Shown in pieces: positions 16,069 through 25,289 of a DNA stretch of 32,000 bases (within the stretch, counting starts at the first letter, position 1; each line of letters opens with the position of its first letter). Location of the stretch: contig NZ_CP060530.1 of the NCBI RefSeq assembly GCF_016806735.1, positions 330,001 to 362,000 of the forward strand. Direction: 5' to 3'. Below the pieces are notes generated by a model that saw nothing but the letters and a program-made list of their open reading frames with translations, was not told where the DNA came from and ran no database searches. A program made the translations under genes and the position numbers. The DNA is from Candidatus Micrarchaeum sp. GTDB taxonomy: Archaea; Micrarchaeota; Micrarchaeia; Micrarchaeales; Micrarchaeaceae.

Positions 16069-16719
16069 ATGATAAAATACTGCCCGACCTGCAACAGGTC
16101 AAGCGAAGAAGCGCGCTTCATAGGCGAGTTCTGCGAGTTCTGCGTTGCGGACAAGATAAAAGCCACGCTGCCTAAAGTGGTCAAGGTGCGCCGCTGCAGA
16201 GTCTGTGGATCGATAAGGGACAGCAAGGGCTTTACGCAATACACCGATGAAGCCATGGCTGACGCAATAGCGCAGCAGATGCATGCTCCAAATTGCAAGA
16301 TAAAGCTCAAGGAGTTCGACGAAATGAGAAGGATTGCTCTTCTTCGCATCGAATGCGAGCTAAACGAGGGCACAGTAAGGTTCAACTATGAAGTCGACGT
16401 AAGGTTCACCAAAGAGATGTGCCCGAGCTGCTACAGGAAAAGCGCCGGCTACTACGAGGCAATAGTGCAGGTGCGCGGTTCAGAGCATAAGGTTGCAGGC
16501 TTCCTGGACAGCTTTTCGCGATTTCTAGAAAAGGGCAACGCCTTCGTAAGCAAAACAGCAGAGATGGGAAACGGCATAGACATGTACGTCAGCGACAAGA
16601 AGCTGGTCACAGGATACTTCATGCTGCACAAGACGATAAAGCCCAAGGTATCGTACAAGCTGTACGGAGTGAAAAAAGGGAAAAAGCTCTACAGGCACAT
16701 ATATTCGGTAAGCCTCTGA
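16069..16719 (+). CDS. NMD3-family protein (ribosomal large-subunit biogenesis/export factor homolog), short archaeal form
   Basis: N-terminal Cys pairs CPTC...CEFC...CRVCGS, then CPSCYRKSAGYYEAIVQVRG, matching the NMD3 C-x2-C...ggyyeAilQlR block. Confidence 0.6.
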   Translation: MIKYCPTCNRSSEEARFIGEFCEFCVADKIKATLPKVVKVRRCRVCGSIRDSKGFTQYTDEAMADAIAQQMHAPNCKIKLKEFDEMRRIALLRIECELNEGTVRFNYEVDVRFTKEMCPSCYRKSAGYYEAIVQVRGSEHKVAGFLDSFSRFLEKGNAFVSKTAEMGNGIDMYVSDKKLVTGYFMLHKTIKPKVSYKLYGVKKGKKLYRHIYSVSL

Positions 16720-18604: not shown

Positions 18605-19081
18605 TCACGAAGGCTGCATCTCCACGCACGGAACGAATCTGTCGCTGGGGCATGAATTATACGAAGTTACGTTTACCAGATAAGTCCCCTGGGAAGTGAG
18701 GCTTCCAAGATATCCCGTAACGTTGACCGGGCTATATGCCGTTACGTAGCTGGCTCCCGCTGTAGTACGCACTACGAACACGACTTCATGCCCTATTCCT
18801 CCGCTCTCGGTACCTACATATATATCTGCCACGTCCGGAGGAACCTGCAGCAATGTAAGCTGTTTTGCCGGGAATCCCTGTGCACCAACTACCGCTGCCA
18901 CGCTTGCCAGCTTGCTGGCAGCTTCCTGCGCCTCTGTTGTGGCTAGTGTGGAAGTGGATGTCGCTATCTGTATGAATGCAAGCACGACTATTGGAAGCAG
19001 TATGATGAGCCCAAAGGACAGCGTTATGAGCAGTTCTAGGCTCGATTGACCCTTCTTGCTTTTTCTGCGCTCCTTTCCCAT
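18605..19081 (-). CDS. Small secreted protein with class III (prepilin-like) signal peptide
   Basis: MGKERRKSKKGQSSLELLITLSFGLIILLPIVVLAFI: a basic stretch, the G-Q-S-S-L-E-L-L motif, then a hydrophobic helix, followed by a beta-rich, Thr/Ser-rich domain. The start ATG abuts the stop of the upstream gene (TAAATG). Confidence 0.65.
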   Translation of the reverse strand: MGKERRKSKKGQSSLELLITLSFGLIILLPIVVLAFIQIATSTSTLATTEAQEAASKLASVAAVVGAQGFPAKQLTLLQVPPDVADIYVGTESGGIGHEVVFVVRTTAGASYVTAYSPVNVTGYLGSLTSQGTYLVNVTSYNSCPSDRFVPCVEMQPS

Positions 19082-20215
19082 TTATACACTTTCTACTCTT
19101 TCGTACTTCTTCTTTTCTAATTTGTCCTTTTTCTTCTTTATCGCTTCCATCAGCGTTTCCAGAACCTTTGCAAACGTCCTGTCAAGCATGAAATCGGTAA
19201 GCCTGACTTCCACCATTCCGTACCTTTCTATGCTTGCCCTTGCGTTTATCTCATACCTGCTGTTCTTGAGCTTCTTAACATTTATGGCTATATAATTGAT
19301 ATTAACCTTTCTGAACTTTTCAACTTTTTCTATGAATGCGTTAGACTGCTCCTTTATTTCATATTCGTATTCGTAGGTATCCCTGTCTATTCCGGATATT
19401 ATTATCCTGTTCTCGAAGGTCTTGCGCTTCGCTATCAGCGCGGCAAGTACGTCAGATATCGTAAGTATGCCGGACGGCACACCGTTGCTCGTCACCACCA
19501 ATGAAGATATGGAGCGGTTCACGAAATTCCTGACGGCATTTCTGACATCGTCCTTTGCGTCTATGCTCACCGGAGACTTTTCCATTATGCTTTCTATGGT
19601 TATGTTCGAAGGGCTGTAACGCCTTGATTTCATGTCGGGATACCTTTCATCTATGACTGTCATCTTCGATATGAGATCGTGCCTTGTTATTAGCCCTGCA
19701 AGCTTTCCATTGTCCAGAACCAGAAGCCTGTTCACATTTCTGTCTGCCATGGCGCTGCTCGCCTGTGCTATGCTCGCCTTTGAGTCGATTCCGAGCGCGG
19801 GAGATGTCATTATATCGCTGCACTTCATGTCCTTGATCGAGTCGGTGGAAAGCAGCATCTTCATAAGCGTGAATCTGTCCAGAACCCCTACTACCTTGTC
19901 TTCGTCCAGATAAGGAAGCGCGTTTCTCCTGCTTCTGTAAAAATAAAATACTGCATCGTCCAATGATGTAGTGTGCATTATCTTAGGCACTTTAACGGCA
20001 TATTTTAGGACTGGAGTATTCTTGTTCATTTTCAGGCTTTTTGACTCCCTGTGCACGCTCCTGAAATCCACAATGCCATAGAATTCACCCTTGTTGTTTA
20101 TCAACACGGCAGGATTCTTGTGAACTGCTGGCAGAACCTTGGTCATTGCAGTATCTGCTTCGAAAATCGGCACCTGCGTAATTACGCTTTTTGGTATCCT
20201 GTCTAATGTCGCCAT
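19082..20215 (-). CDS. Four-CBS-domain (two Bateman modules) protein with C-terminal HPF/RaiA-like (S30AE-like) domain
   Basis: Four CBS repeats end in the hydrophobic-x-G-hydrophobic-hydrophobic-D/T pattern (FYGIVDFRSV, VVGVLDRFTL, LAGLITRHDL, PSGILTISDV). Residues 270-377 show a beta-alpha-beta-beta-beta-alpha pattern and a KKKKDKLEKKK tail (see findings). Confidence 0.75.
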   Translation of the reverse strand: MATLDRIPKSVITQVPIFEADTAMTKVLPAVHKNPAVLINNKGEFYGIVDFRSVHRESKSLKMNKNTPVLKYAVKVPKIMHTTSLDDAVFYFYRSRRNALPYLDEDKVVGVLDRFTLMKMLLSTDSIKDMKCSDIMTSPALGIDSKASIAQASSAMADRNVNRLLVLDNGKLAGLITRHDLISKMTVIDERYPDMKSRRYSPSNITIESIMEKSPVSIDAKDDVRNAVRNFVNRSISSLVVTSNGVPSGILTISDVLAALIAKRKTFENRIIISGIDRDTYEYEYEIKEQSNAFIEKVEKFRKVNINYIAINVKKLKNSRYEINARASIERYGMVEVRLTDFMLDRTFAKVLETLMEAIKKKKDKLEKKKYERVESV

Positions 20216-20312
20216 CTAAACACCATAAACATTATTAATTTGCTAAGGAAAGAATATTAAGCATAAGGTAGCAACCTTACCTGTGCTTTTGAAAAGGGGC
20301 GCGATATAAATT

Positions 20313-20396
20313 GCCAGGATGGCAGATAGGCTATGCAGCCGCCTGCAGAGCGGCGAAGACGGGTTCGAAACCTACGCGAAAATCCCGTTCCTGGCT
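20313..20396 (+). tRNA. tRNA-Cys (anticodon GCA) with a 13-nt intron in the T-loop (about 20370..20382)
   Basis: Acceptor GCCAGGA/TCCTGGC, D-stem GCAG/ATGC (13:22 mismatch), anticodon stem GCCGC/GCGGC with loop CTGCAGA, 4-nt variable region, T-stem ACGGG/CCCGT, discriminator T. The T-loop is interrupted by 13 nt. Removing them leaves TTCGAAT and a 71-nt tRNA. Confidence 0.75.
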
Positions 20397-20444: not shown

Positions 20445-20891
20445 TCATATGTCTATCACGACACTCGACCTGTAGTGGCCTCCGATTTTTTTGACTTCTA
20501 GCGTATATCCGGAGACTCCTTTTACATATATCCTCGAATACTTTACCTCCTCGTCGACATATAAAATATTTGCAGAAACGCCGAATCTATCTCCCGATTT
20601 CGTTACCTTTATCTTCTCAACTCCATAGCCGTATGCACTAATTGCATCCAGTTCCGACAAGACCCTTTGCAGTATATACCAAAGCAGGTCCCTCTCGCTG
20701 CTAGCGCTTTCGCTTACTTCAATGGTTTTTGATACCAATTTTCCCGCCCTTACGTCCCTGCCTATGGCACGTATGTCGGCTTGCGTATCGAGCATTGCCA
20801 GCATTGAGTTCTCAAGCATTTGGGCTATGTCGTCGCCATATGCCAGGAACCTTACGTCTGCCGTGTGTGGCATAAACCTGTACCTTATCAT
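20445..20891 (-). CDS. Archease (RtcB tRNA-ligase cofactor family)
   Basis: From ATG at 20891: MIRYRFMPHTADVRFLAYGDDIAQMLENSMLAML... This has the archease N-terminal signature (f-x-x-x-HTAD-hydrophobic-x-hydrophobic-x-x-x-G). 148 aa is the typical size. The track's longer 205-aa version would overlap the divergent neighbour. Confidence 0.8.
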   Translation of the reverse strand: MIRYRFMPHTADVRFLAYGDDIAQMLENSMLAMLDTQADIRAIGRDVRAGKLVSKTIEVSESASSERDLLWYILQRVLSELDAISAYGYGVEKIKVTKSGDRFGVSANILYVDEEVKYSRIYVKGVSGYTLEVKKIGGHYRSSVVIDI

Positions 20892-21002
20892 AAAAGCGCC
20901 TGCGCAAGCTAAAAATTGCTGATAATTCAACGGAACGAAATTATTTAGTATGTGTTTGCCAAAAGCTATACGTCCTATGAAGAAAAGAGTAACTGCTGAA
21001 CA

Positions 21003-22622
21003 ATGATGAAGCCCATTTCGGCTGAGGACTTTTACGGTGTTTTGATGGCAATAAGCAGCCATAAAGTAAGTGCTCGTGTGGCAGCCACGGCAATACTATT
21101 TATAGCATTCCTGGTAGCAGCGTACAACTCAATCGCCGTTACCGGATTCTCGATATCGGATTCCAACCCTGCCGGGTACATAATAGTCCCGATGCTCATG
21201 ACGCTGGTATTCATAATATTCTCGCTGAAGGAGAATCTCGTCATCATCTACAGAAAACGAAACCTCGCATACGGGGCAATCCTGGCATTGATATACTTTG
21301 CAATATATGCCTATTCAAAAGTGTCCTTGTCTTTCCTCTTCCAGACCTACAGGATAGATGCGCTGCTCTTTCCCATACTGCTATCGTCATTTGCCCTCAT
21401 TCTCTTTGGTCCGTCGGGCCTAAACAAGCTCAAGCCTGCTGTTGTGTTCTCCATATTCGCATCTCCTTTGATACTGATGCCATTGCTTAACCTGTCGGGT
21501 GCGTGGACGAGCTTCAACGCATATTCCGTTGTCTCTGTATTGAAGCTTTTCGGCGTTCCGGTCCTTAGCCACGGCCTTGAAATAACCGGTGCATCTGGCT
21601 CGTCGATATCCATAGCTTCAACATGCGCAGACATCGCAGCCTTTGTGGCGATGCTGCTCTTTCTGATACCGATAGCATACCTTTATGAAGGGAATCCTGG
21701 CAAGAGGGCCATATGGGTCGCTTCAGGAATGGTTCTTCTCTTCGTGCTTAACATAATCAGGATGTCGCTCATAGCAGCAGTATGGGCTTATTATGGGCTC
21801 AGCTCTGCGCTAAACACTGTGCATCTTTTTATAGGCCAGCTGCTCTTCGACATAACCCTGGTCGTCATGATACTTCTGGCGCCAAAATTCTCAATGCGCC
21901 TGGGTGTGCAGAGAACGGGGCAAAAGTACAGTCGCAGCACAAATTCAGGGGCATCCAATGGCGCAATCTTTGACAAGTCGTTCGCGGTTCCCGCACTTTC
22001 CGTAATAATTGTCGCATTCCTGGTATTCGCATTCACCTTGCCACAGGCAAGCTATCAATACATTAGCCCATTCTCATTCGCGGATAATTTCTCATACGTT
22101 TCCAATTCGAGCGTTATATCATCTTACGATGCCGTCGCCCTGGGATCTGGGTACAGCATGAAATCAGTGACCTTCGGGGGCAGGTCAGAGCTTTTCGGCA
22201 TATTCAGCACAAATGACATAAATACTACTACCAACAGCTTCCTTTACATCAACTCCAGCGCGAGACCTACAATGCCACGCATAAACCTGCATCAGCTCGG
22301 CACAATACTTATGCACAGGGAGGAATCAACAATTTCTGGAATAACTATAAATGCTTATGAAATATCATCAAATGGCAAGCTTTTCCAGGTGAACTACATA
22401 TCAATGCCAAATAAAATCTATGGCAATTACACTGTCGCTAACATGGAATTCGTAACCCTAATGAATTCTACCTCGGATTTACAATCCTGCAGAACAGAAT
22501 ACGGTGCAATACAAAGCGTTTATTCGTACATATACAACGCACTGCACTTTAGCTTCGAAGGAAACAACTACGGAATATTCTGCGCGGCGTTCAACGAAGC
22601 CAAATTGGCGCAGCAGAGGTAA
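21003..22622 (+). CDS. Exosortase/archaeosortase-family membrane protein with extra TM and about 190-aa C-terminal extracytoplasmic domain
   Basis: About 8 TM helices. Family-like blocks: VLKLFGVPVLSHGLEITGASGSSISIASTCADIAAF (conserved Cys, residue 208), FVLNIIRMSLIA (N-x-x-R, Arg253), NTVHLFIGQLLF (His274). A further TM (ALSVIIVAFLVFAFTL) is followed by a sequon-rich soluble domain. Confidence 0.65.
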   Translation: MMKPISAEDFYGVLMAISSHKVSARVAATAILFIAFLVAAYNSIAVTGFSISDSNPAGYIIVPMLMTLVFIIFSLKENLVIIYRKRNLAYGAILALIYFAIYAYSKVSLSFLFQTYRIDALLFPILLSSFALILFGPSGLNKLKPAVVFSIFASPLILMPLLNLSGAWTSFNAYSVVSVLKLFGVPVLSHGLEITGASGSSISIASTCADIAAFVAMLLFLIPIAYLYEGNPGKRAIWVASGMVLLFVLNIIRMSLIAAVWAYYGLSSALNTVHLFIGQLLFDITLVVMILLAPKFSMRLGVQRTGQKYSRSTNSGASNGAIFDKSFAVPALSVIIVAFLVFAFTLPQASYQYISPFSFADNFSYVSNSSVISSYDAVALGSGYSMKSVTFGGRSELFGIFSTNDINTTTNSFLYINSSARPTMPRINLHQLGTILMHREESTISGITINAYEISSNGKLFQVNYISMPNKIYGNYTVANMEFVTLMNSTSDLQSCRTEYGAIQSVYSYIYNALHFSFEGNNYGIFCAAFNEAKLAQQR

Positions 22623-22626
22623 TGCA

Positions 22627-23634
22627 ATGCACATAGAATACAGCTCCGGATTCATAATATACCGTGAAAATACATCCGGAAAGCAGGAGTTCCTTTTCCT
22701 CAGGAAGAAAAATGGCGACATAGACATACCTAAGGGCCATATAGAAAAGGGCGAAAATGCCCTCCGCGCAGCAATACGCGAAACCAAGGAGGAAACTAAT
22801 CTGAGCGTAAAGCCCGACAAATTCTTTAACATAAGAAGGTACTACTGGTTCAGGTTCGGAAAGGAAACGATCAAAAAATACCTGACAGTTTTTCTTTCGG
22901 AATATGTAGGCGGAGAGGTAAAGGTGTCAAGCGAGCACGAAGGCTACGAATGGATAGAACCAGCAAAGGCCGTAGCGGAATATTCCAAAAAGCACTATAA
23001 CCATGACCATATAGACGCTGCGGTAGACTATCTTGAGAAGCGCCGCCTGCTTCAAGAGCTGAACGGTGCGTATTCAAGGCTGCCCGATACGTTCGGCAGA
23101 TGGGAATTGAGCAGAAAGTTCGTTCCAGGCGAAGGCCCTGCTAATGCAGAAATAATGGTAATAGGCCAGGCTCCAGGGGCAAACGAAGACGATTCCGGGA
23201 GGCCTTTCGTAGGAAGAGCGGGAAAGCTTCTGGATTCGCTTCTTAAAAGCGCAGGCATACTCCGCAAAAAGGCCTACATAACCAGTGTAGTGCAGTTCTT
23301 CCCCTATGGCAACCGCATGCCTACTGAAGAAGAAATTGAAGCATGCAAGCCCTTTCTGTTCAACCAGATATCGATAATAAGGCCAAAGCTCGTTATAGCG
23401 CTCGGATCGCTTGCATCCGCTACGGTGTGTGGCATAGGGGCGATAAAGTCAAACCATGGTACGGTAATCAAGAAGGACGGCGTCAACTACTTCTGTACTC
23501 TGCACCCTGCAGCGGCAGTGCGCATAAAGAGCAACATGCCCATAATAAAGGAAGATTTCCTGAAACTTAAGCCCCTGGCTAAGGAAGCGCTTTCAGCCAA
23601 AAAAGAAAAGGTTAATAAAAACCCGGCAAGTTAG
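22627..23634 (+). CDS. Fusion protein: N-terminal Nudix hydrolase (Ap4A-hydrolase-like) plus C-terminal family-4-like uracil-DNA glycosylase domain
   Basis: Nudix box GHIEKGENALRAAIRETKEETNL (residues 37-59). UDG-superfamily motifs GEGPANAEIMVIGQAPGANEDDSGRPFVGRAGKLL and LHPAAAV. ATG at 22627 lies 4 nt after the archaeosortase stop. The track's longer version overlaps the upstream gene. Confidence 0.8.
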   Translation: MHIEYSSGFIIYRENTSGKQEFLFLRKKNGDIDIPKGHIEKGENALRAAIRETKEETNLSVKPDKFFNIRRYYWFRFGKETIKKYLTVFLSEYVGGEVKVSSEHEGYEWIEPAKAVAEYSKKHYNHDHIDAAVDYLEKRRLLQELNGAYSRLPDTFGRWELSRKFVPGEGPANAEIMVIGQAPGANEDDSGRPFVGRAGKLLDSLLKSAGILRKKAYITSVVQFFPYGNRMPTEEEIEACKPFLFNQISIIRPKLVIALGSLASATVCGIGAIKSNHGTVIKKDGVNYFCTLHPAAAVRIKSNMPIIKEDFLKLKPLAKEALSAKKEKVNKNPAS

Positions 23635-24389: not shown

Positions 24390-25289
24390 TCAGCGCCTCC
24401 TGTTGAAGCGCTTCTTGCCGTCGAATTTCCTCCCGTGTCCATGCCCCTGCCTGTTGCTGTCATACTGCCTGGTGGGCTTTTCCTTGACCGGCGAGCTTGT
24501 TATGCGCTTTATGCCGTTGTCTATGTCTACCTTGAGCTTCTCAGCTATGAAATTCTTTGTATAATAGTCTGCCTTCAACGCCATTGTTATCTTGGTGGCG
24601 TAAAGCCTTGCTATCCTCCCTTTTATGTCCTTTCTTGCATTGGTCACTTCCGGGAGCTTGAATATGACTCCGTACTTCGGTGGCTTGCTTCCGAATTTTA
24701 TGTGCTTGAAAAGAGCCTTCTCTGCGCCTAGCAGCTGCACGGTGCTTGCAGGGAATGTTGCAAGCCTTTCCATGGAGCCGGCCTTGCTGAGAAGCTCTGC
24801 TGCTATTTTGTCGTCAGTAAGATAAGCGGTATTCGGGAGAAGCCTCTGCGACGCTGCGCTTATGTATAATTCAAGCTTGTCTATGGAATCGCTTATCTCG
24901 AGAAGCAGCTTAGCGTACTCTATGACTACGTTCCTTTCCTCGTCGCCCATGCGCCTGCCTATGCTGTCTTTCAGCTTCTTCTCTATAGATTCGGCCTTGC
25001 TCGCATCGCCTATGGCGCTTTCTATGGCTTCCCTGCCTATCTCCCTGTCGGAATTCAATATTAGGACCAGAGAAGCAAGAGCCTTGGGGCTGGATACGTT
25101 TATTTCAGGGAAGTACAAGCCGTACCATTCAGTCAGCCTCTCATAGAACAGGTTCTGCGACTTTACCGCTTCATTGTAGGCATTTATCGCCTGTATAAGT
25201 GCGTATTCCTCACTCTCGTAGTTAAGCTTTATCTTCTCCTTTGCGGTGCTTATCATGCGCTTTCTTAGCTCTTCGAAATCGTTTTCCAA
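24390..25289 (-). CDS. nop5: Nop5 (Nop56/58-family) C/D box sRNP core protein, lacking the N-terminal domain
   Basis: NOSIC/coiled-coil start ERLTEWYGLYFPEI. Nop-domain block LLGAEKALFKHIKFGSKPPKYGVIFKLPEV. Basic C-terminal tail (GHGHGRKFDGKKRFNRRR). Starts at TTG 25289 (first ATG at 25256). An in-frame TAA lies immediately upstream. Confidence 0.8.
   Translation of the reverse strand: MENDFEELRKRMISTAKEKIKLNYESEEYALIQAINAYNEAVKSQNLFYERLTEWYGLYFPEINVSSPKALASLVLILNSDREIGREAIESAIGDASKAESIEKKLKDSIGRRMGDEERNVVIEYAKLLLEISDSIDKLELYISAASQRLLPNTAYLTDDKIAAELLSKAGSMERLATFPASTVQLLGAEKALFKHIKFGSKPPKYGVIFKLPEVTNARKDIKGRIARLYATKITMALKADYYTKNFIAEKLKVDIDNGIKRITSSPVKEKPTRQYDSNRQGHGHGRKFDGKKRFNRRR

Follow-up and report, generated by a model that had tools for sequence, protein, structure and literature searches.

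The gene at positions 19082 to 20215, on the minus strand of a 32,000-nucleotide stretch of DNA from Candidatus Micrarchaeum sp. (NCBI RefSeq assembly GCF_016806735.1, contig NZ_CP060530.1, positions 330,001 to 362,000; here called the window), encodes a protein in which a tetrad of CBS domains is followed by a C-terminal domain with the fold of HPF and RaiA. We take it to be, with a probability of roughly 0.85, the orthologue in Micrarchaeota (DPANN) of the archaeal ribosome hibernation factor described as HibA or AHA. The HibA/AHA architecture has already been described in work of 2025-2026, Micrarchaeota included, and so the finding is not new. A preliminary description made from the DNA letters had read the gene as a candidate CBS-HPF hibernation factor, and that reading is supported by the analysis below.

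HibA was found by cryo-electron microscopy of ribosomes from stressed Pyrococcus abyssi (Madru et al., Nat Commun 2026, PMC13324472). It is encoded by PAB0961 in P. abyssi and TK1186 in Thermococcus, and its structures are deposited as PDB 9SR9-9SRF and 9T7H. The protein consists of a CBS module (residues 1-269) and an HPF-like domain that starts at residue 270; the C-terminal domain occupies the 30S channel for mRNA and tRNA, the CBS module adopts any of three placements on the 50S subunit, and the peptidyl-transferase centre (PTC) can be entered by a long loop (190-207). Reported from 47% of archaeal genomes, HibA usually carries the label 'CBS domain-containing protein', so that the premise of the preliminary description that HPF/RaiA proteins are only bacterial or plastid factors is out of date. 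The supplements of the same paper list Micrarchaeota genomes. AHA (Haloferax volcanii HVO_2384; Souza et al., bioRxiv 2026, PMC12934967) belongs to the same family. On ribosomes it carries two AMP molecules at CBS3/CBS4 and places an extended CBS3 loop in the PTC; its deletion causes a stationary-phase survival defect, and for HibA/AHA in general, poor recovery of deletion strains after stationary phase is described (PMC13324472; PMC12934967). The HPF-domain seeds of the AHA survey came from nine lineages, among them the Micrarchaeota member Fermentimicrarchaeum limneticum (PMC12934967), which puts the phylum inside the described family.

The open reading frame (ORF) is confirmed, on the minus strand, as one of 377 codons with its stop at 19082-19084, and its first methionine is invariant across 28 homologues. 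The CBS module spans residues 1-265 (19421..20215, minus strand, as for all parts of the gene given here) and contains the four CBS repeats, or two Bateman modules, that had been proposed. Pfam finds CBS as the sole family in the protein (E 8.7e-30, three stretches above threshold); an AlphaFold2 model of the full-length protein, built on a 28-sequence alignment (predicted local distance difference test score, pLDDT, 82.9), shows the beta-alpha-beta-beta-alpha unit four times, at about residues 10-57, 70-122, 131-185 and 206-264; and Foldseek returns CBS tetrads. An NCBIfam scan gave sub-threshold, CBS-driven matches only, and a DNA-binding or catalytic domain was not detected in the protein by either Pfam or NCBIfam. 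The C-terminal HPF/RaiA-like domain (residues 270-377; 19085..19408), the only domain of its kind in the window, is recognised by AlphaFold2, by Foldseek and, at the level of the family, by the Pfam model PF02482 (Ribosomal_S30AE). The amino acid string quoted for it in the preliminary description does begin at residue 270, but it stops at 370 and is followed in the protein by YERVESV. Upstream of the gene, a putative promoter and translation start region (20216..20270) contains two AT-rich, TATA-like boxes and a GGTG element resembling a Shine-Dalgarno sequence. The roughly 55 nucleotides before the ATG are nearly identical across loci L001-L006, where the proteins themselves are only 69-96% identical.

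What kind of domain is the C-terminal one? Foldseek searches with the full-length model produced a list dominated by CBS tetrads, with nothing on the C-terminus, and the C-terminal domain was therefore modelled separately. Modelled alone by AlphaFold2 it reached a pLDDT of 84.9 and adopted the same topology as in the full model, in which its secondary-structure elements lie at 271-375 and the terminal helix at 344-375. The top 19 matches of the isolated domain in the PDB are all HPF, RaiA/YfiA or the plastid protein pY (E from 4e-5, template modelling (TM) score 0.55-0.78, root-mean-square deviation (rmsd) 2.5-4.2 A, about 100 aligned columns), drawn from Vibrio, Listeria, Borrelia, E. coli, Thermus, Coxiella, Staphylococcus, Acinetobacter, Bacillus, spinach and Chlamydomonas; all unrelated folds rank lower. 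Superposition on 4hei, 6h4n, 4y4o, 4v8i, 5x8r and others gives TM scores of 0.62-0.78 at an rmsd of 2.5-3.5 A. The structural comparison thus bears out the HPF assignment that had been made by eye, and the structure and profile checks that the preliminary description named as able to refute its reading both favour it, the profile check at the level of the family. HibA entries are absent among the 50 Foldseek matches listed, with the full-length as with the domain query.

The link to HPF at the level of sequence is weaker, and emerges when the family is considered as a whole. The region is a real domain rather than a low-complexity tail, as judged by its conservation across the family, with S274, G275, D277, T280, Y321 and G333 invariant. 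A profile made from 17 C-termini, run against PDB sequences, places bacterial HPFs at the head of the list, with marginal E values of 0.008-0.6 (8fmw_W 0.008, E. coli HPF 0.03, and five further HPF entries below 0.6). The by-eye overlay on E. coli HPF, including its KDKL tail, was reproduced by hhalign, which aligned domain residues 21-102 with HPF 11-93 and paired the two KDKL tails (E 0.0026); the E. coli sequence used matches PF02482. Scanned singly, 13 of the 17 C-termini match PF02482 (E up to 10; 3.3e-5 for the best), and every other Pfam family is matched by two or fewer. Searched exhaustively by HMMER with the C-terminal profile, 1.84 billion representative sequences yielded 72 clusters, nearly all of them proteins of 353-399 residues with the domain at about 265-375, plus a few standalone proteins of 108-131 residues. 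One standalone relative, P0099, is found by the profile at E 1.7e-6 and passes the PF02482 gathering score (24.5 vs 23.7 bits); fused relatives score up to 22-23 bits, and three of them are read as four CBS repeats plus S30AE at E of about 1e-4. Precomputed annotation already assigns PF02482 to two family members, and the JGI name of one member is 'CBS domain-containing protein/ribosome-associated translation inhibitor RaiA'. The domain therefore resembles HPF beyond chance. Compared with bacterial and plastid HPF, RaiA (YfiA) and pY, the fold of residues 270-375 is alike (V. cholerae, E. coli, T. thermophilus, spinach) and the sequence similarity weak but specific; unlike these proteins, the window's domain is joined to a CBS tetrad, ends in a longer helix, lacks the dimerisation domain of long HPF and scores below the Pfam threshold.

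The relationship to HibA is most evident over the whole length of the protein. The family profile aligns with P. abyssi HibA (9sr9_H, 392 residues; entry 9SR9 is identified as HibA in the data-availability statement of PMC13324472) in a single stretch, residues 15-371 against 14-380, at E 5e-31. BLASTP finds 27% identity (E 3e-15) from CBS2 as far as CBS4, and the alignment stays colinear across the loop that separates CBS3 from CBS4. The domain boundary is also alike, with CBS domains in residues 1-265 and the HPF-like domain at 270-377, as against 1-269 and from 270 in HibA, and both proteins have a long loop after CBS3 and adenylate motifs at CBS3/CBS4. Among the differences, the protein has 377 residues rather than 392; its C-terminal domain is about 15 residues shorter; insertions in P. 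abyssi HibA relative to the Micrarchaeota family amount to only 1-3 residues; the loop has a conserved motif of its own, (D/E)RxP...YSPSN; and the protein comes from a DPANN symbiont. With AHA, compared through its published description, it has in common the architecture of four CBS domains and HPF and an extended loop in or after CBS3. As in AHA, the terminal helix (344-375) exceeds that of E. coli HPF in length. Two AMP molecules are seen in AHA where motifs alone can be read here.

Several results weigh against the assignment to HibA. Searched as a single sequence, residues 266-377 do not match Ribosomal_S30AE in Pfam at E up to 10 and match nothing among PDB sequences, so that the profile check proposed for this region succeeded for the family (13 of 17 C-termini, and P0099) and failed for the window's own domain; the gathering threshold of PF02482 (23.7 bits) is not reached by that domain, and none of the 13 C-termini was shown to reach it. 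The matches that these single-sequence searches did give, to DUF4420, IFT20 and FlgJ, are at chance level and were set aside. A direct hhalign comparison of the C-terminal profile with the C-terminus of P. abyssi HibA, reconstructed from HMMER output, was not significant (E 0.12), and the same HibA C-terminus is absent from the profile's matches among PDB sequences. The link to the HibA HPF domain is accordingly one of fold, colinearity and an attached CBS module, not of direct similarity between the two domains. Colinearity with HibA is likewise the sole ground on which the CBS module may be placed in the monophyletic HibA-CM clade, the sister of the CM-5/SriA-like modules, and the loop after CBS3 is unlike the PTC loop of HibA in sequence and equivalent to it in position only.

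The CBS module by itself resembles a wider group of CBS-tetrad proteins. The full model matches CBS tetrads in Foldseek at E 1e-16 to 1e-13, and the tetrads found include the hibernation factors SriA/B, SriD, SriC/D and Dri as well as MJ1225 and AMPK-gamma; tetrads of the Sri, Dri and ARC type are the top Foldseek and HMMER matches of the N-terminal module. The tetrad fold is common to SriA-D of M. acetivorans (PDB 9ZNF, 9ZNG and 9ZNI), Dri of P. calidifontis (9E7F) and ARC-A/P, which differ from the window protein in lacking an HPF-like domain. In Dri the tetrad is present twice; Sri and ARC consist of separate proteins, each binding a single subunit. The statement in the preliminary description that CBS-domain proteins have been seen on hibernating archaeal ribosomes was right, with Dri, SriA-D, ARC and HibA/AHA as examples. 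A further match is a 406-residue CBS protein, 9L96, for which a literature search on that PDB code found nothing.

Two features of the module bear on its likely function. One is the distribution of the canonical G-h-h-T/S-x-x-D ribose/phosphate motif, which is retained as GLITRHDL in CBS3 (residues ~131-185; 19661..19825) and as GILTISDV in CBS4 (residues 206-264; 19424..19600; G249, T252 and D255 invariant), and is degenerate in CBS1 and CBS2. The CBS3 motif is retained in most family members. This pattern agrees with nucleotide sites at CBS3/CBS4, and that pair probably binds adenine nucleotides. The other is the 20-residue loop between CBS3 and CBS4 (residues 186-205; 19601..19660), which carries the (D/E)RxP...YSPSN motif with R191 and P193 invariant and is modelled with pLDDT below 50 at residues 187-199. 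It is aligned, colinearly, with HibA 190-207 by both HMMER and BLASTP, and so corresponds by position to the 'PTC loop' of HibA and to 'loop 3' of AHA. Finally, the CBS module has an isoelectric point (pI) of 9.7, and both modules are basic across the family (pI about 9.5).

How might such a protein act? Its architecture and fold, its homology to HibA and HPF, the nucleotide motifs, the loop and the basic charge have been described above; ribosome binding, the sites of binding and the physiological role are inferred from characterised homologues. If it behaves as its counterparts do in the solved complexes from P. abyssi and H. volcanii, its basic HPF/RaiA-like domain would occupy the decoding centre of the small subunit, within the channel for mRNA and tRNA. 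The CBS tetrad would cover the tRNA sites of the large subunit, and the loop after CBS3 would extend in the direction of the PTC. With both domains so placed on the 70S ribosome, a single polypeptide would keep the idle ribosome in one piece, prevent translation and protect rRNA against nucleases. The adenylate site would be at CBS3/CBS4; in HibA, AMP is the preferred ligand.

A competing view is that the protein is a generic CBS-tetrad regulator (a transcription regulator, the JGI label of several homologues, an HhpR-like CM-3 protein, or something akin to AcuB or IMP dehydrogenase) whose likeness to HPF has nothing to do with ribosomes. CBS tetrads are indeed known in non-ribosomal regulators too, and homologues are named 'predicted transcriptional regulator', 'acetoin utilization protein AcuB' or 'Inosine-5'-monophosphate dehydrogenase' in databases. 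Considering that these names are automatic labels derived from CBS matches only, that no DNA-binding or catalytic domain was detected in the Pfam and NCBIfam scans, and that the C-terminal domain resembles HPF in particular, both in its fold and in the Pfam matches of the family, within a protein colinear with HibA throughout, we regard this view as very unlikely. Identification as a transcription regulator, membrane protein, AcuB or IMP dehydrogenase was rejected on the same grounds, the labels being CBS-derived and such domains absent. It is also hard to see the C-terminal domain as a module like a double-stranded RNA-binding domain (dsRBD) that acts on a non-ribosomal RNA, such as tRNA or a small RNA, under the control of the CBS tetrad as an adenylate switch. 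The protein is basic throughout, and weak Foldseek matches to the dsRBDs of DCL4, Staufen, PACT and DRB do occur at ranks 20-46. They fall below the HPF block, however, and cover 67-77 columns at E of 0.04 or worse, whereas the HPF matches extend over about 100 columns (E 4e-5 to 2e-2). Moreover, the isolated-domain model has the N-terminal beta strand that sets HPF apart from dsRBDs, and the sequence-level matches point to S30AE and not to dsRBD families. This second view is very improbable.

A different question arises within the preferred reading, that of a HibA-type hibernation factor: is such a factor strictly gated by energy charge, with AMP turning it on and ATP turning it off? The preliminary description had suggested as much. 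In favour are the conserved nucleotide motifs of CBS3 and CBS4, the preference of the HibA CBS module (HibA-CM) for AMP (dissociation constant 12 uM) over ADP and ATP at a site at the CBS3/CBS4 interface (PMC13324472), the two AMP molecules of ribosome-bound AHA, and a preprint on ARC that claims energy sensing for that related CBS system. On the other hand, AMP left the classes of the reconstituted HibA complex unchanged and ATP added only one weakly populated state; the HibA authors report that nucleotides did not clearly alter ribosome binding and consider other roles, for example one that involves a sequestering partner (PMC13324472). Energy-charge gating is thus not established, given that AMP and ATP had no clear effect on HibA-ribosome binding in vitro, and for the window protein we consider it possible but rather unlikely.

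The family to which the protein belongs is a sizeable one. A first search found 40 full-length relatives and a profile search 111, nearly all of them 370-390 residues long. Nearly all carry a Micrarchaeota or Micrarchaeia label, and some are listed as 'Marsarchaeota'. The profile search, made in a set of 5.8 billion proteins with its reach limited by a word index, returned none beyond Micrarchaeota. In contigs representing one genome per species, a scan with the single protein found close relatives only, and the closest loci are in Micrarchaeota metagenome-assembled genomes (MAGs), including Ca. Mancarchaeum. Three of the syntenic loci (L003, L004 and L006), with HibA proteins 72-90% identical, are in MAGs titled 'Candidatus Marsarchaeota archaeon' or 'Methanothrix sp.', and one partial homologue bears the name 'Candidatus Parvarchaeum sp.'. 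Syntenic loci that are 89-90% identical carry the Marsarchaeota and Methanothrix labels. The Marsarchaeota, Methanothrix and Parvarchaeum labels are likely taxonomic mislabels or bin contamination.

The gene has a close companion. A pilin-like ORF for 158 residues (18605-19081, minus strand) begins straight after the HibA stop codon, with the junction TAA ATG and no spacer. The encoded protein carries a signal peptide of the archaeal class III (type IV pilin-like), KKG/QSSLELLITLSFGLIILLPIVV, together with a conserved pair of cysteines at its C-terminal end; searches of Pfam, NCBIfam and PDB sequences gave no match, and a literature search gave nothing specific. In every Micrarchaeota locus examined, a pilin-like gene follows HibA, abutting or overlapping it. 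In six divergent loci the flanks differ, yet an orthologous ORF for about 151-163 residues is found in this position (L008:6131-6586, L009:6140-6619, L011:6137-6628, L012:5127-5597, L013:5139-5612 and L014:5127-5609). The pilin-like proteins are better conserved than HibA, being 42-66% identical where HibA is 28-42% identical, and 89-98% where HibA is 69-96%. In three loci the next gene after the pilin-like one encodes a giant Laminin_G_3 surface protein, and in L013 a gene with a Pfam match to Fsx1 (fusexin-like; L013:652-2466) lies about 1.5 kb upstream of the pair. Perhaps Micrarchaeota couple ribosome hibernation to a surface filament by co-expression, with dormancy and attachment to the host regulated as one, but we judge this improbable; in a variant of the idea, the 'pilin-like' protein may itself have a role connected with HibA. 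Co-location of the two genes under one strong promoter is the simpler reading. The pairing is nonetheless a small and cheap lead for work on dormancy and host contact in DPANN symbionts.

The remaining neighbours of HibA in the window are SecD/F, NMD3, ThrRS, archease, an exosortase-family protein, a fusion of NUDIX hydrolase and uracil-DNA glycosylase (UDG), and Nop56/58. Two of these, the archaeal NMD3 homologue (16069-16719, plus strand) and Nop56/58 (24390-25289, minus strand), belong to ribosome biogenesis. The gene order around HibA is common to close relatives, and the order NMD3-ThrRS-pilin-HibA-archease is retained in L011, where HibA is 42% identical; it is lost in more distant loci, and so looks like the synteny of a lineage rather than a functional cluster. 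The archease ORF, listed at 205 residues (20445-21062, minus strand), has its Pfam domain at residues 61-205. The N-terminal 60 residues or so lie outside that domain, and the ORF aligns in two frames or pieces in relatives; considering that archease homologues are called at 143-150 residues, the true start is probably an internal methionine near residue 55-60. The gene for the exosortase/archaeosortase-family membrane protein (539 residues; 21003-22622, plus strand), which has a C-terminal extension of about 240 residues with no family match, stands beside archease across Micrarchaeota loci, and its start overlaps the annotated 5' end of archease on the opposite strand. The NUDIX hydrolase and family-4 UDG are encoded by a single fused ORF with the NUDIX part N-terminal (22504-23634, plus strand). 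The same fusion is found in the distant loci L008 and L011, while L009 has UDG alone and L014 NUDIX alone nearby.

The intergenic region between archease and HibA also contains an unannotated gene for tRNA-Cys(GCA) (20313-20395, plus strand) with an insert of about 13 nucleotides in its T-loop. In its intact form it is missed by ARAGORN and Rfam; after deletion of 11-16 nucleotides, ARAGORN calls tRNA-Cys at the site. The orthologous region of L006 contains the same tRNA-Cys with no insert, and the T-stem covaries between loci (ACGGG/CCCGT, GAGGG/CCCTC and GCGGG/CCCGC). In the predicted fold of the precursor, the acceptor and anticodon stems form, the T-arm is extended through the insert and the D-stem is not formed. 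The insert is probably a non-canonical intron. The tRNA gene adjoins that of archease, a cofactor of the RtcB tRNA ligase.

What does the assignment mean for the annotation and biology of these organisms? An inference made from raw sequence turned out to be correct, and it arrives at a result already published in 2025-2026. The protein and its relatives in Micrarchaeota, over 100 in number, still go by names such as 'CBS domain-containing protein', 'transcriptional regulator', 'AcuB' and 'IMP dehydrogenase', and could be renamed as hibernation factors of the HibA/AHA type. In the family at large, archaea hibernate their ribosomes with an HPF domain of bacterial type joined to a CBS tetrad like that of AMPK-gamma. 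For DPANN biology, the gene would mean that even a genome-reduced, host-dependent archaeon retains a dedicated factor for the preservation of its ribosomes.

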